From an uncultured Verrucomicrobiota bacterium (GTDB lineage: Bacteria > Verrucomicrobiota > Kiritimatiellia > RFP12 > UBA1067), in NCBI GenBank assembly GCA_946613265.1, contig CAMOFK010000001.1, positions 22,753 through 86,752 on the forward strand: a DNA stretch of 64,000 nucleotides. The letters run 5' to 3'. Of the stretch, positions 2,258 through 59,209 are shown in pieces. The notes beneath the pieces were generated by a model, which saw only the letters and a program-made list of their open reading frames with translations, did no database searches and was not told where the DNA came from. The position numbers and the translations under genes are program-made. Every line of letters starts with the position of its first letter. Position 1 is the first letter of the stretch.

Positions 2258-3880
2258 CTACCACGCGCCCATCGTGAGATACGGGAGGATGAGCGTCTGC
2301 AATGTGACGTCGAGATCGAAAAGCGCGACGCCGGCGAGCCCGTACTTGCGCGCGAGCATCGCCTGCTCGATGACCTGGCGGGCATCCAGGCGCGATTCGT
2401 TGGCGGTCACGCCTATCCCTGCGATCGTCCTGCGCGCGCGCGTCTTTTTCGACGCATGCTGTTCGAGGAAGGATGTGTAGAGGGCGGTGTTTTCCGTGTA
2501 GTCCATTGGGACGGCGAAATCGATCAGATTGAGGTCTATCCAGCTTTGCCAGTCCTGACCGACCGACGCGATGCAGACAGGGTATTTCCCCAGCACTGCG
2601 GCGGTGAGCCATTTCGGCTTCTTCACGTGCCTGCGGACGGAGGCGACGAATTTCGTTATCGTCGCGGCGGCGTCTTTCGGCTTGGCGGCGCGTTCGTACC
2701 ATCTGACGAAGTCGAGATGTATGCCATCGACTTTGTAGCGCGCGGTTATTTCGTCGATCGCCTTCAGCAGATGCTCGCGAACGGCGGGATTGGATGGATC
2801 GAGATATTCGGTGAGCGCGCCATCGCGCGCCTTCAAGCGCCACCCGAGCTTTTCGAAGTTTTTCAAGCGTTCGGGAGTCGCGCGCGTGGCGGTGAAGCAG
2901 AGTATCCAGGCGTGCACTCTTATGCCTGTCCCCTTGGCGGCGGCGAGACACGCCTTGAGCTGGTCGCCCTCTTCTTCGAAGGTGCGCGAGCGCGGCAGTA
3001 CGTCGGATGGATAGTGCGCGAAGCCGGCCCCTGCCACATTGACGAAGAGGTCGGTGATCTTGCCGGCTTTCAAGACCGCGAAAGTGCGCTTCCAGTCTCC
3101 CGGATAAAGCCCGCATCCCGAATGATCCCAGACGGCATGGATTTCGCCGGGTTTCGGAGTTTGCGCGAGCGCGTACTTCGCGAGCGCCGCGCGCTTCGTG
3201 GCGTCTCTGGCGTCGGCGGACGCCGCGTTCCAGAGCCGCGGATCGGCGTTGCCGGCGAGCGCGGCGAGCAGGCGCGCTTTGAGGGCTTCATCGCCGTCCG
3301 CGAGCAGAACGTGGGTCATCCAGAAGCCGGCGTCGGATGCGATCCATGCAGGCTCACCCGAGCCTTTGCCTTTGCGGTCCACCCAGCGCGCGATCGTCCG
3401 CGCACGCCCGGGAATCGGCCGCGAGCTTTGGAGGACGGTGGAAGTCTGGCGGATCGAGCGGGGAATCCCCGCAATGTTCGCGGCGGCCTTGAGGTCGAAA
3501 TCCATTTTGCTCCATTGGCCCGGATACGCCGCCTTCTTGTACGCCACGACCTTTACGCCCATCATGGACGCGAGCGCCGGCGAGGACGAGTAGAAGACGA
3601 CGAGCTTGCCGCCGCGCGCGCGAAACGCCTTGAGAGTCGCGAGTTCCGCGGCGTCGGGCTTGTCGAAGCCTACGAGGAATGCGATTTTCGCTCCTTCCAG
3701 AGCCTTGCCGAGTTCCGCGACGGGATGCGTCTTCGCCTCGATTCCCTGCTGGCCGAGCCAGCGCTGCGCGTGGCGCGCGAGCGACGTGTAGTATCCAGGA
3801 TCGTGGGCGACCACCGGAACGGCGGCGGAGGCGCAGCACGCCAGCGCCGCCGTGAGGATCGACATTGCCGCTTTCTTCAT
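2258..3880 (-). CDS. Secreted glycoside-hydrolase-like family 10 (GHL10/DUF187, YngK-like) protein
   Basis: 540 aa. N-terminal signal peptide MKKAAMSILTAALACCASAAVP. The C-terminal half has a TIM-barrel-like pattern (VDGIHLDFVRW, WLTAAV, DFAVPMDY) typical of GHL10. Confidence 0.65.
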   Translation of the reverse strand: MKKAAMSILTAALACCASAAVPVVAHDPGYYTSLARHAQRWLGQQGIEAKTHPVAELGKALEGAKIAFLVGFDKPDAAELATLKAFRARGGKLVVFYSSSPALASMMGVKVVAYKKAAYPGQWSKMDFDLKAAANIAGIPRSIRQTSTVLQSSRPIPGRARTIARWVDRKGKGSGEPAWIASDAGFWMTHVLLADGDEALKARLLAALAGNADPRLWNAASADARDATKRAALAKYALAQTPKPGEIHAVWDHSGCGLYPGDWKRTFAVLKAGKITDLFVNVAGAGFAHYPSDVLPRSRTFEEEGDQLKACLAAAKGTGIRVHAWILCFTATRATPERLKNFEKLGWRLKARDGALTEYLDPSNPAVREHLLKAIDEITARYKVDGIHLDFVRWYERAAKPKDAAATITKFVASVRRHVKKPKWLTAAVLGKYPVCIASVGQDWQSWIDLNLIDFAVPMDYTENTALYTSFLEQHASKKTRARRTIAGIGVTANESRLDARQVIEQAMLARKYGLAGVALFDLDVTLQTLILPYLTMGAW

Positions 3881-10089: not shown

Positions 10090-11769
10090 CTAGGGAACCG
10101 GGAAGCCCAGCGCGAGGGCTTTCGCTTCGCGCTTCACGCGCTCCTGGATGGAAGTGTCGGCGATGTTGTCGAGCACATCGGCGATCCACGTACCGATCTT
10201 GATCATCTCCGGCTCTTTCATTCCGCGCGTCGTGACGGATGCGGTGCCCACGCGGATGCCGCTCGTCTTGAAAGGCGATTCGGTGTCGTAGGGGATGGTG
10301 TTCTTGTTCACGACGATGCCGGCGGCGTCGAGCGCGGCCGCCGCATCCTTGCCGGTTATCCCTTTCGTCGTCTTCACATCGACGAGGAAGAGGTGGTTGT
10401 CCGTGCCTCCGGAGACGATGCGATAGCCGCGATCCTGCACCGTCTTGCAGAGGACCGCGCAGTTCTTCACTACTTGCGCGGCGTAGTCCTTCTTCTCCGG
10501 CTGCATCCATTCGCGGAAGCATACCGCCTTTGCGGCGATGATGTTTTCGAGCGGCCCGCCTTGCATGCCGGGGAAGACGGCGGAATCCAGCGCCTTCGCG
10601 TACTGCGCCTTGCAGAGGACCATGCCGCCGCGCGGCCCGCCGAGAGTTTTGTGCGTCGTGGTGGTGACGAAATCAGCGTAGGGGACGGGCGAAGGATGCG
10701 CGCCGCCCGCGACAAGCCCTGCGATGTGCGCCATGTCGACGACCATCAGGCAGCCGGCCTTGTCGCAGATTTCCCGTATTCTCTTGAAGTCGAGCGTGCG
10801 CGGATATGCGGAGGCTCCCGTCAGGAGAATCTTCGGCTTTACTTCGAGCGCCTGCGCTTCGAGGGCGTCGTAGTCGAGCATCTCCGTCTTGCGATCCACG
10901 GTGTACGGGACGATGTTGTAGATCTTGCCGGAGAAATTGACCGGGCTGCCGTGCGAAAGGTGCCCGCCCTGATCGAGCGAAAGCGAGAGGATCGTATCGC
11001 CCGGCTTGATCGTCGCGAAATACACCGCCATGTTCGCGGCGGAGCCGCAATGCGGCTGGACATTCGCGTGCTCGGCGCCGAAAAGACGGCAGGCGCGCGT
11101 GCGCGCGAGCTCCTCGGCCGCGTCCACCGGGAGGCACCCGGAGTACCACCGCTTGCCCGGATAGCCCTCGGCGTACTTGTTCATCAGCACGCTTCCGGCA
11201 GCCTCGCGGCACGCGCGGCTCGAAAAATTCTCCGACGCGATTAGGTTGATTTCCGTATCCTCCTGCTCGGTCTGCGCGACGATCGCAGCGAAAATCTCCG
11301 GGTCGGCCTTGGCGAGCCCCGATGCGTCGCTCAAGCGGCCTGCGCGCTCGTTGAGCCAGCGCCTCCTGACATGGCGCTCGCTGGCGTCCGCAGGCGTCGC
11401 GATGAATGCGGATGCGATTTCCGCCGCGTAGTCCGCGGAGACGGAATTGGCGCCGAGGCAGAGGATGTTGGCATCGTTGTGCTGGCGCGCCATGACGGCG
11501 GCGTCAACGGTGGCGCAAAGCGCCGCGCGGACATTCTGGAAGCGGTTGGCCGACATCGACATGCCCACGCCGGACGTGCAAACGAGTATCCCGAAATCGA
11601 CTTCGCCTTTCGCGACCGCAAGCGCGACGGCTCTGGCGTACTCTGGATAATCGCAGGATTCGCGCGTGTCCGTGCCTGCGTCGATCATCGTCGCCTTGGC
11701 TCCGAGCGAACTCAAAAGCACGCACTTCATGGCATACCCGCCGTGGTCTGCACCGATAGCAATCTTCAT
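10090..11769 (-). CDS. glyA: Fusion protein: ribose-5-phosphate isomerase B (RpiB/LacAB) N-terminal domain plus serine hydroxymethyltransferase
   Basis: 559 aa. Residues 1-~145 read [15 protein letters not shown]...[16 protein letters not shown]...NILCLGA (RpiB). Residues ~160-559 carry [21 protein letters not shown] and [14 protein letters not shown] (the PLP lysine motif of SHMT). The frame is open and uninterrupted. Confidence 0.9.
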
Positions 11770-25862: not shown

Positions 25863-25939
25863 CCCTAAACCGAAGGCTCTCCCGATGTCTTGCGGGCGCG
25901 GGGAGGAGCGGTAAAACCTCGAAGGTGTCGCCTTTTCAA

Positions 25940-26085
25940 GTGATACCTATCGCCCTTGCAAGTGATACCTATCGCCCCTGCAAGTGATACCTATCGCCTC
26001 ATCAAGCGATACCTATCGCCTCATCAAGCGATAGGTATCGCTTCGTCGAGCGATAGGTATCGGTCAGGGAGGGGATAGGTATCGG
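25940..26085. repeat. Array A: seven 22-bp-phased units, each a 14-bp palindrome G(T/C)GATA-CC/GG-TATCG(C/G) plus an 8-bp spacer
   Basis: The GATACCTATCG cores start at 25942, 25964, 25986 and 26008. The GATAGGTATCG cores start at 26030, 26052 and 26074. The period is exactly 22 bp. The array is intergenic. Confidence 0.95.
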
Positions 26086-56694: not shown

Positions 56695-57048
56695 ATGAGA
56701 ATCAAGGCCACCAAAACGAACGCGGCTCAGGTGGTCGTCTCCAAGAAGACGACTCCCACCGCCGCGAAGAAGGCAAGAAAGACCGAAACTCGCGAGGTCG
56801 TTTTCACTGTTCATGCCGAACGCGGCAAGAACGTGTTCGTCGCCGGCGAGTTCAACAACTGGGATCCTACGGCAAAGAAGATGGCTTTCAAGGTCAGGGA
56901 AGGCATCTACACCGCTTCCATGAAGCTCGCCCCCGGCGACTACCAGTACAAGTTCGTCATCGACGGAACCTGGTGCGCGGATCCGGAGAATGTGAACTCC
57001 GTCGCCAACGACCAGGGCACCTTCAACTCCGTCATCACGGTCAAGTAA
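56695..57048 (+). CDS. Small CBM48 / AMPK-beta-type glycogen-binding-domain protein
   Basis: 117 aa. VFVAGEFNNWDP....M......G.Y...M.L.PG.YQYKFVIDG.W..DP is the canonical CBM48 pattern. Confidence 0.8.
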   Translation: MRIKATKTNAAQVVVSKKTTPTAAKKARKTETREVVFTVHAERGKNVFVAGEFNNWDPTAKKMAFKVREGIYTASMKLAPGDYQYKFVIDGTWCADPENVNSVANDQGTFNSVITVK

Positions 57049-57240: not shown

Positions 57241-57286
57241 TACCCCGCAGGATCGGCCACGTTCGCGACTTTTGTCGTATGCTCTG

Positions 57287-57432
57287 GCGACTGGAGTCGC
57301 CCGTGCTGGCGACCCTAGTCGCCTTTGCAAGCGACTGGAGTCGCCTTTGCAAGCGACTAGAGTCGCTTTGGCTCGCGACTGGAGTCGCCTTCGCAAGCGA
57401 CTAGAGTCGCCTTCGCTCGCGACTGGAGTCGC
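57287..57432. repeat. Array B: seven 22-bp-phased units, each a 14-bp palindrome GCGACT-GG-AGTCGC (variants) plus an 8-bp spacer
   Basis: Palindromes start at 57287, 57309, 57331, 57353, 57375, 57397 and 57419, a period of exactly 22. Spacers are ccgtgctg, ctttgcaa, ctttgcaa, tttggctc, cttcgcaa and cttcgctc. Confidence 0.95.
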
Positions 57433-57517
57433 CCCGGCGCGCAACCCACATCAGGAGGGACGCGCTCCCGCGCGTCCACCGGCCGCGCCGGAGCGCGTTC
57501 CTCCGCCGTTCGTGCGG

Positions 57518-58240
57518 TGGTGTAGCGCAAAGCCCCGAATGGGGCGACATATATATAGCCGGGGGTGGAGCATGCGAAGCATGCGGAACCCCCGGTATCG
57601 GCGCAAAAGTGAATCGAACCCCGAAGGGGTGGCACAATGGGTGTTCCGATGGCGTCGGAATAATTGTGCCACCCCTTCGGGGTTTGTGCGTTCTTCGAAC
57701 GCATTCCGGGGGTTGCGCGCGCGTTGCGCGCTCCACCCCCGGCTATATATGTGTCGCCCCTTCGGGGCTTTGCGGGCGTGCGATGGTGTAGCGCAAAGCC
57801 CCGAATGGGGCTTTTTTCGGTCGCGCGATGGTGTAGCGCAAAGCCCCGAATGGGGCTTTTCTCGGTCGCGCGGTGGTGTAGCGCAAAGCCCCGAATGGGG
57901 CGACACATAAATAGCCGGGGGTGGAGCATGCGAAGCATGCGGAACCCCCGGAACAAGCACGAAAGTAAATCGAACCCCGAAGGGGTGGCACAATGGGTCA
58001 CAGCGGGTGTTTCAACATCGTCGGAGCAATTGTGCCACCCCTTCGGGGTTCGATTCAATATTGCGCCTATTCCGGGGGTTGCGCGGGCTTCGCCCGCTCA
58101 CCCCCGGCTATAAATGTGCCGCCCCTTCGGGGCTTGTTTCAATATTGCGCCGATACCGGGGGGGGTGGAGCATACGAAGCATGCGGAACCCCCGGAACAA
58201 GCGCGAAAGTAAAACGAACCCCGAAGGGGTGGCACAATGC
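57518..58240. repeat. Five copies of a roughly 100-125-nt composite hairpin element in alternating orientation, plus a 45-bp triplication of its 5' module
   Basis: E1 57518-57640 (+), E2 57661-57780 (-), E3 57872-57997 (+), E4 58028-58135 (-), E5 58141-58238 (+, 5'-truncated). Shared modules are GTAGCGCAAAGCCCCGAATGGGGC, CCGGGGGTGGA[hairpin]GGAACCCCCGG and CGAACCCCGAAGGGGTGGCACAAT. Confidence 0.9.
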
Positions 58241-58270: not shown

Positions 58271-59209
58271 TCAGACGCGATAGCCGGCGCGGCGTGCGAG
58301 TTCGCGATCATCGGCGAAAATCGCGCCTGGCGTGGTGAGAAGAGCGCCGGCTATCCCTGCGGATATGCCGACATAGATGCACTTTTCGGCTGTTTCGTCG
58401 GACATGTCTCTGCGGCCGCCCGCGAAGCGCAAATGGGTCGCGGGGTTGACAAGGCGCAGAAGGGCGATGGAATCGACCACTCGTTCTGGATCGAGAATGG
58501 GTCGAGCGCCGAGCGGCGTGCCTTCTATAGGATGAAGGACGTTGACGGGGATGGAGTCCGGCGCAATCTCCTTGAGCGTGAAAGCGAATTCGACGAGCTG
58601 TTCGTCCGTCTCGCCCATGCCGATGATGCCGCCGCAGCAGATTTCCAGGCCGAGGCGGCGGGCGGCGCGAAGCGTCGCGAGCTTGTCGGCGATAGTGTGC
58701 GTAGAGCAAAGGCGCGGGAAGAGCGATGGCGCGGTCTCGATATTGCAATGCACTCTCGACAACCCGGCGGCTTTGAGTTTGGCGAGGTCGTCTTCGGAGA
58801 GGAGCCCGAGAGACGCGCAGAGAGAGATGGAGCCATGCTCGCGCATCTTGCGCAGCGCGGCGCACACATTCTCGATTTCGCCGGGAGAGAGCGTGCGGCC
58901 GGATGTGACGATGCCGATGCGCCGCACGCCGTTGGCCTCGGCATCGGCGGCGGCGCGCGCGCATTCGTCTTCGCCGATCCAGCCATGTGCGGCGCAAGAG
59001 GTTTTCCAGTGCGCGGATTGCGCGCACCATTTGCAATCCTCGGTGCAGCGCCCGCAGCGGGCGTTGATTATCGAACAAAAGTCGAAAGTCTTTTCCACGC
59101 ACGCGAGCGTGACGGCGTGGGCGCGCTCGCGCAGTTCGGCGCGGCGCTCCGGCGCCAGCAGCGCCAGCGCTTCTTCGCGCGTTATTCCTTCTGCATCTGT
59201 TTTCCGCAT
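58271..59209 (-). CDS. bioB: Biotin synthase (radical SAM)
   Basis: Start MRKTDAEGITREEAL at 59209. Radical-SAM cluster motif CGRCTEDCKWCAQS, then HCNIET and CCGGIIGMGET. Confidence 0.9.
   Translation of the reverse strand: MRKTDAEGITREEALALLAPERRAELRERAHAVTLACVEKTFDFCSIINARCGRCTEDCKWCAQSAHWKTSCAAHGWIGEDECARAAADAEANGVRRIGIVTSGRTLSPGEIENVCAALRKMREHGSISLCASLGLLSEDDLAKLKAAGLSRVHCNIETAPSLFPRLCSTHTIADKLATLRAARRLGLEICCGGIIGMGETDEQLVEFAFTLKEIAPDSIPVNVLHPIEGTPLGARPILDPERVVDSIALLRLVNPATHLRFAGGRRDMSDETAEKCIYVGISAGIAGALLTTPGAIFADDRELARRAGYRV

Follow-up and report, generated by a model that had tools for sequence, protein, structure and literature searches.

Between the 3′ ends of two convergent genes, a 64-kb stretch of DNA from an uncultured Verrucomicrobiota bacterium (contig CAMOFK010000001.1; the whole stretch is called the window here) carries a dense cluster of hairpin-forming repeats at positions 57523–58239. 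What are these repeats, and what could have brought them there? A preliminary description, made from the sequence by itself, likened them to repetitive extragenic palindromes (REPs) and to the bacterial interspersed mosaic elements (BIMEs) built from them, repeats that are tied to Y1 transposases. The tie to Y1 transposases holds, since homologous units flank PF01797 genes in inverted orientation in other phyla, but the partner appears to be an IS200-like enzyme of subclass 1.2, not a class 2 REP-associated tyrosine transposase (RAYT). We consider it probable that the region is a BIME-like cluster of non-autonomous DNA repeats that resemble REPINs (REP doublets forming hairpins), with a Y1 transposase as their mobiliser.

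Structure of the repeat cluster

A covariance model, R1, was built from 17 distinct unit copies of the window's lineage. It finds exactly five matches in the window, all inside 57523–58239. The units there alternate in orientation, four being complete (∼116 nt) and one partial, and the region also contains two extra 45-nt copies of the first module (module 1). The five elements of alternating orientation reported earlier are these five matches, E1 to E5, but E5 is partial and the two copies consisting of module 1 only had been overlooked.

Each unit is made up, in order, of hairpin B1 (GCCCC-GAA(T)-GGGGC), a linker with the consensus G(A/G)CA(C/T)ATAnATAG, hairpin A (CCGGGGG...CCCCCGG), which encloses a 6-bp mini-hairpin, a 22-nt spacer module, hairpin B2 (ACCCC-GAA-GGGGT) and GGCACAAT. 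The basic unit of ∼116 nt can be described as a small hairpin followed by G-R-C-A-Y-A that occurs twice (B1-GACATA and B2-GGCACA), with the longer hairpin A between the two. The three modules originally assigned to every element are real, and correspond to hairpins B1, A and B2, except that E5 has no module 1 of its own. The stems of B1 and B2 within a unit are not significantly more alike than expected (38 matches versus 34.5 ± 2.6).

In E1 (57523–57639, + strand; full-length R1 match, 135.4 bits), alignment and pair counts place hairpin B1 at 57532–57545, followed by the linker GACATATATATAG, hairpin A at 57559–57595 with its inner mini-hairpin at 57570–57584, the 22-nt spacer module, hairpin B2 at 57618–57630 and GGCACAAT at 57631–57638. 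E2 (57662–57777, − strand; 129.6 bits) lies head-to-head with E1 across a 22-nt spacer (57640–57661); in complete elements from other phyla (L083, L007 and L011) the Y1 gene stands where this spacer does. The spacer module of E2 folds into a small hairpin of its own, GCGTTC-GAAG-AACGC. Next comes a 45-nt tandem repeat on the + strand (57769–57901; Tandem Repeats Finder: period 45, 3.0 copies, 94% matches), two copies of which are module 1 only (GGTGTAGCGCAAA, hairpin B1 and a T-rich tail; pattern matches at 57788 and 57833) and the third of which is the start of E3; a strain of the same species has a different, 46-nt variant at this site. E3 (57879–57995, + strand; 135.7 bits) and E4 (58028–58142, − strand; 133.5 bits) form a second head-to-head pair, an inverted repeat in the sequence with a 32-nt spacer (57996–58027). 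The partial unit E5 (58134–58239, + strand; 70.6 bits) comprises hairpin A, the spacer module and hairpin B2-GGCACAAT, and its left side is an inverted copy of spacer and hairpin B that it has in common with E4. Six copies of the module-3 20-mer CCCCGAAGGGGTGGCACAAT and four of a module-1 24-mer are present in the window, all of them in the repeat region, as against none expected from shuffled sequence.

The close pairing of E1 with E2 and of E3 with E4 noted at the outset is borne out, and E1 and E2 fold together as one long hairpin (−120.7 kcal/mol, z = −17.6). The arms of the mini-hairpin are GCATGC/GCATGC in E1 and E3, GCGCGC/GCGCGC in E2 and GCGGGC/GCCCGC in E4; in E5 there is one mismatch. 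The inner loop of E2, formerly read as gcgtt, is better taken as GTT with 6-bp arms. The spacers within the doublets (57640–57661 and 57996–58027) are partly conserved between loci, for example as GGGTCACAGCGGGTGTTTCAACATCGTCGGAGC in the E3/E4 pair of the window and in loci L092 and L093, and hence it seems to be the whole doublet, not the single unit, that gets copied.

A leading GTAG had been regarded as a feature of the element. It occurs only in the GGTGTAGCGCAAA leader of the four module-1 copies of the 45-nt variant, 6 nt from the stem, and is absent from E2, E4, L090, L091a, most relatives and the cross-phylum consensus. GTAG is therefore not a feature of the family, and the units are not classical GTAG REPs. 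The assignment of the units as non-coding stands. Their lengths (108, 115, 116, 117 and 131 nt) reflect indels that are not multiples of 3, they occur in both orientations, and no Pfam domain was found on the open reading frames (ORFs) that overlap them; a protein-coding reading is ruled out by these properties.

Dispersal and relatives of the unit

Further loci of the lineage were recovered with a protein query taken from a spurious ORF that covers the repeats, and by one metagenome scan with a 22-mer, which returned a single copy from the same lineage (L090). Although the window holds only this one cluster, at least five distinct loci of the lineage, the window included, carry units in these fragmentary assemblies, and the flanks of L090, L091, L092 and L094 are unrelated to those in the window. 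At L091 the units lie between a hypothetical gene and the gene for a 2780-aa protease; at L092 ∼1 kb of units, including a ∼277-nt tandem of doublets, follows an unrelated gene; and at L094 an E cluster (300–480) begins ∼70 nt past a 5S rRNA gene and its T-run. Clusters in the lineage start just past the 3′ ends of genes, be these stop codons or 5S rRNA. Dispersal to at least four other loci removes the possibility that the cluster is a local duplication, which had been named in advance as fatal to the interpretation. A related genus, represented by a Kiritimatiellae bacterium whose MutS is 74% identical to that of the window organism, showed neither synteny with the window nor units in 22 kb.

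A comparison between strains had been proposed. At L093, which represents the window's locus in another strain, identity to the window is 99.8% in the bioB part, but in the cluster whole cassettes have been replaced: spacer modules, the leader of module 1 and the two arms of the mini-hairpin in E4, where the L093 orthologue carries GCGCGC/GCGCGC. Each module exists in a few alternative versions, from which the 18 distinct units of the lineage are assembled as mosaics. Switches of both arms between strains that are 99.8% identical are swaps of whole hairpin cassettes, not the outcome of stepwise compensatory mutation.

Outside the lineage, an exact scan of one genome per species with an 18-mer from hairpin B2 gave 79 loci, none of them from the species to which the window belongs. 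Some 28 of these matches look like chance, several of them in coding sequence, while full-length R1 units (E ≤ 1e-4) were found in 51 loci, from about ten phyla. The taxa include Bacteroidota, Ignavibacteriales, Calditrichota/Calditrichaeota, Planctomycetota (including Brocadiaceae), Hydrogenedentota, Chloroflexota (Anaerolineales), Acidobacteriota, Lentisphaerae, Bradymonadales and Desulfobacterota (Desulfobacteraceae). In many loci there are second units without the 18-mer. Units that have no gene usually form head-to-head doublets whose members lie ∼9–30 nt apart, and no protein family was enriched near gene-less units.

Compensatory variation in the hairpins is strong. Among the 17 lineage copies 99.2% of cells are paired, the covariation score exceeds that of all 500 shuffles, and in two pairs of the mini-hairpin both partners change (AU/GC and UA/CG/GC). 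The covarying inner stems first noticed in the sequence are thus upheld statistically, although between near-identical strains they arise by the replacement of cassettes described above. In 82 units from across the phyla the share of paired cells is 98.4%, and double-sided changes affect 22 of 23 pairs (155 cells); this covariation was reached by none of 500 shuffles, and slid controls collapse. G-U or U-G (G-T) pairs number 23 and A-C or C-A pairs 1, and the structure is therefore read on one strand of the unit, the strand that reads hairpin-GGCACA. Covariation as such is unable to tell a structure in RNA from one in single-stranded DNA.

The unit also has a relative in Rfam that had gone unrecognised, modules 2 and 1 together being a variant of Acido-Lenti-1 (RF01687). 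Rfam lists this motif as a small RNA (sRNA) of unknown function from two phyla, Acidobacteria and Lentisphaerae. The RF01687 model scores above its gathering threshold of 37 inside units of six loci (41.6–54.7 bits), in the same places as the R1 matches. The best scores in the window, 19.8 bits in E2 (57739–57769) and 19.3 bits in E4 (58094–58134), fall below that threshold because hairpin A here has ∼23 extra nt with the nested mini-hairpin. Acido-Lenti-1 consists of hairpin A, the linker GCUAnAUnAUGUCG and hairpin B, which is modules 2 and 1 read on the opposite strand; compared with the Rfam seed sequences, its counterpart in the window is CCGGGGG...CCCCCGG-CTATATATGTGTCG-CCCC-TTCG-GGGC at 57707–57768. 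The Rfam model differs from the unit in spanning 46 nt of at least ∼100 nt, and its strand is opposite to the one that tolerates G-T pairs. On the basis of this sequence comparison we take the window unit to be a divergent, enlarged relative of Acido-Lenti-1.

Association with Y1 transposase genes

What might mobilise such units is indicated by loci in other phyla. At L083 and L061 a 150-aa ORF lies between inverted units, and its product matches PF01797 (Y1_Tnp) with 83 bits; it passes the NCBIfam IS200/IS605 equivalog cut-off (61.3 bits versus 55) and lies well under that of REP_Tyr_transpos (20.3 bits versus 80). Y1 homologues adjoin the motif in 12 of the 79 loci. The layout of the complete element, ∼700 bp in length, is a + unit ending in GGCACA, the gene and a − unit, with the GGCACA ends pointing inward; at loci where both flanks were covered the units bracket the gene, and the upstream unit ends 0–110 nt before the Y1 start codon. 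The reciprocal test gave the same association: three Y1 genes were picked on protein similarity alone, and all three have R1 matches directly adjacent. In a member of the Planctomycetia (L095) one unit lies directly downstream of the Y1 gene (3001–3462) and another upstream (1154–1234); in Runella (L101) there are units on both flanks of the Y1 gene (3001–3462); and in a metagenome-assembled genome (MAG; L104) units lie upstream of it. E1/E2 and E3/E4 look like gene-less, REPIN-type doublets of the same arrangement, in which a spacer of 22–32 nt replaces the gene.

For the Planctomycetia and Runella Y1 proteins, the two cases in which several contigs were read, the gene context is one and the same across samples, which is what a single-copy gene should show. 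Three side observations concern these loci. In L095 a gene for an IS110-family transposase (1615–2859) lies between the upstream unit and the Y1 gene, and looks like an insertion into the element. In Runella (L100–L103) the Y1 gene with its flanking units separates hsdR from hsdM in a type I restriction-modification operon, a position shared by all five contigs listed, which come from several samples. The two units that flank a single Y1 gene at L007 (1250–1349 and 1845–1945) have different small-hairpin stems, CCCC/GGGG and GTCC/GGAC, but B1 and B2 share their stem within each of them; such agreement of rare stems inside a unit is seen in L049 and L077 as well.

The flanked Y1 proteins are 150–153 aa long, with the motifs DH[IV]H, WQ and Y-I-x-N-Q-x-x-H-H and a conserved C-terminal tail. 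By motifs and length they fit subclass 1.2 of the TnpAY1 enzymes of Quentin et al. (2018; PMC6006769), who describe this subclass as low in copy number, without REPs and without typical IS200 ends, and give its range as Cyanobacteria and Bacteroidetes. Homologues of the flanked proteins are named also from Planctomycetes and Ignavibacteria. In the table of manually found REPs in that paper there is no entry for subclass 1.2 or for the hairpin of the unit. The protein family is a large one, with at least 8000 clusters at 90% identity, and its members are named at source as IS200/IS605 transposase or RayT.

How does this arrangement compare with known systems? It shares much with the REP/REPIN/BIME–RAYT system: hairpin-forming intergenic repeats, inverted doublets that fold into long hairpins, clusters of alternating orientation, a single small Y1/HUH gene, in other phyla, between inverted copies of one repeat (the REPtron layout) and loci with unrelated neighbours. 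The differences are that a REP is 20–40 nt long, whereas the unit has ∼100–116 nt with two or three hairpins; that REPs bear a GT[AG]G tag, whereas the unit lacks it and has a conserved G-R-C-A-Y-A tag 3′ of the small hairpin; that the RAYT partner is of class 2 (Y...NP), whereas that of the unit in other phyla is of class 1.2 (Y...Q..HH); and that REPs are usually lineage-specific, whereas the sequence of the unit is nearly identical across phyla. TnpAY1 subclass 1.2 as published is without repeats, whereas the genes here are flanked by inverted multi-hairpin units. The repeats of class 3 TnpAY1 (CnGA foot, Solibacter) were considered as members of the same family and rejected, the sequences being different.

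Like the complete elements described here, IS200 elements are ∼700 bp long. The complete elements also resemble the IS200/IS605 group in their NCBIfam family assignment, and gene-less derivatives of that group exist, the palindrome-associated transposable elements (PATEs). Recognition of the two end hairpins takes place on one and the same strand in IS608 and ISDra2, whereas the ends here are inverted copies of each other; IS200/IS605 elements are multi-copy, whereas the Y1 genes here, judged from their fixed gene context, look single-copy; and tnpA/tnpB lie inside the IS200/IS605 element, whereas the doublets in the window have no gene and their spacers of 22–32 nt are too short for one.

The elements also resemble the TIRtrons of Di Nocera et al. 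(2013; PMC3733652), in which Y1 genes (TIRYTs) lie between long inverted repeats instead of REPs, and some of these inverted repeats are dispersed as dimers or clusters. The TIR motif that they share, GGGGWSAS, fits GGGGTGAC of hairpin B-GACATA, a likeness at the level of the motif. Most TIRYTs were later placed in subclass 2.1, of ∼238 aa with a helix–turn–helix (HTH) tail (PMC6006769). Our literature search, which was incomplete, found no paper that links units of the Acido-Lenti-1 type to subclass 1.2.

Mobile DNA, RNA or host element?

A mechanism can be proposed in which a Y1 transposase encoded elsewhere in the genome would bind the hairpins on single-stranded DNA and cut beside the conserved GRCAYA motif. 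The enzyme would thereby copy or move the doublets, by analogy with what has been proposed for RAYTs and REPINs. Once clustered, the units may be reshuffled by recombination or gene conversion between members of the family, which would account for both the mosaic of interchangeable modules and the hairpins in which both arms are replaced.

Several points weigh against this explanation. Neither a transposition event nor an empty site or a target sequence came to light, and the differences between strains are all recombination-like replacements, without insertions. The window has no Y1 gene, as judged by testing ORFs with H-x-H against PF01797 and by a hidden Markov model (HMM) of subclass 1.2, in agreement with the earlier statement that no RAYT gene is present; nor was a Y1 gene of the window's lineage found among the best 120 of at least 8000 protein matches. 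Units adjacent to Y1 genes were seen in Bacteroidota, Ignavibacteria, Chloroflexota and Planctomycetota, and none in the examined loci of Acidobacteriota, Calditrichota, Hydrogenedentota and Lentisphaerae. The cross-phylum alignment was fitted to R1 and most of its loci were found via the hairpin B2 18-mer, so that conservation of hairpin B2 is partly there by construction. Finally, the excess of G-T over A-C pairs suits RNA equally well as single-stranded DNA.

This last point leads to the first of the rival explanations, that the units encode a structured non-coding RNA or form part of one, the hairpins being maintained by its function, as in the Rfam reading of Acido-Lenti-1. Compensatory variation is strong, G-U pairs are tolerated where A-C pairs are not, and in complete elements the 5′ leader of the Y1 gene is likely to contain the upstream unit; Acido-Lenti-1 was graded as 'probably RNA' by Weinberg et al. 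(2010; PMC2864571). We nevertheless regard this explanation as improbable. The units occur head-to-head in both directions, have been amplified in tandem, differ between strains that are nearly identical and break assemblies, and the unit downstream of the Y1 gene keeps its structure on the opposite strand, out of reach of a single mRNA. The window copies are under the Rfam threshold; at gathering thresholds the only Rfam matches in the whole window are two tRNAs, and at a permissive threshold the repeat region matches microRNA hairpin models non-specifically. No promoter-like site was found in the repeat region, a weak test outside organisms with the sigma-70 consensus.

The setting of the cluster raises a second rival, that the units are 3′-end elements serving the host (terminators, mRNA-stabilising hairpins or protein-binding sites) and are kept by selection, not by transposition. 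On the left, the gene for a 117-aa CBM48/AMPK1_CBM protein (Pfam; 56695–57048, + strand) has its 3′ end facing the repeats; on the right is bioB (Radical_SAM and BATS domains; 58271–59209, − strand), whose stop codon is 32 nt from the end of E5. This position between convergent genes, the start of other clusters of the lineage just past stop codons or 5S rRNA and the T-run that ends the module-1-only copies would all suit such a role, and roles of this kind are reported for classical REPs (PMC3733652). Terminator-like sites (a GC-rich stem and a T-run) number 4, however, against 2.3 ± 1.7 in shuffles, two of them inside the cluster, so that by this count intrinsic terminators are not commoner than chance; and both orientations, the doublets, the sequence identity across phyla and the flanking of Y1 genes are left unexplained. 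As the main explanation it is unlikely. It is compatible with mobile repeats as a secondary role, and any effect at the level of the host, such as protection of transcript 3′ ends or termination, would be secondary.

That the doublets are miniature inverted-repeat transposable elements (MITEs) of a classical DDE transposon with terminal inverted repeats, or an artefact of local duplication or assembly, is very improbable: the inverted-repeat doublet is MITE-like in form and the region is hard to assemble, but no DDE transposase is enriched near the units, the gene between inverted units encodes a Y1 enzyme, no target-site duplication was noticed at the cluster edges (by eye, not systematically), and the same units, both at this locus and at others, are present in assemblies made independently from several samples.

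A separate repeat family adjoins the cluster on the left. It is a 22-nt tandem array (57265–57447) of 14-nt palindromes, GCGACT-NN-AGTCGC, joined to E1 by an inverted repeat that forms a hairpin with 24-nt arms (57454–57504) and is conserved at L091. There, too, the array lies next to an E unit; L091 10298–10689 matches window positions 57684–57284 with 84% identity over 403 nt. Arrays of period 22, each with ∼6–7 copies of a 14-nt palindrome and an 8-nt spacer, are found at 57265–57447 and 25928–26062 in the window and at 10540–10700 in L091, and their arms vary in a compensatory way (GCGACT/AGTCGC versus GCGATA/TATCGC). Two of the three adjoin an E unit via the conserved hairpin, and the array at 25928 has no E unit nearby.

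Whatever their origin, the units have practical consequences. They break short-read assemblies of Kiritimatiellae-like and other genomes, as in MAG GCA_002363575.1, the contigs of which are 100% identical to the window and stop within the repeats, at 57535 and 58114, and they yield spurious ORF calls. The region in the window is itself ordinary selfish or repeat DNA, not a gene.

The wider point, which may be new, is that units of the Acido-Lenti-1 type could be the missing repeats of subclass 1.2. We lean, with some reserve, towards the view that TnpAY1 subclass 1.2 has its cognate single-stranded-DNA substrate in the multi-hairpin unit of ∼100 nt, of which Acido-Lenti-1 would be a fragment, and that enzyme and unit form a REPIN–RAYT-like system extending over about ten phyla. 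Its recognition module, the small hairpin with GRCAYA, would then be conserved almost to the letter across phyla, unlike that of classical REPs. If this is true, an Rfam motif that has been without a function since 2010 would be explained in concrete terms, and a very common, uncharacterised group of small Y1/HUH enzymes would gain a testable DNA partner. It would also mean that REPIN-like systems exist far outside the Proteobacteria, with a unit that is much longer and far more conserved.

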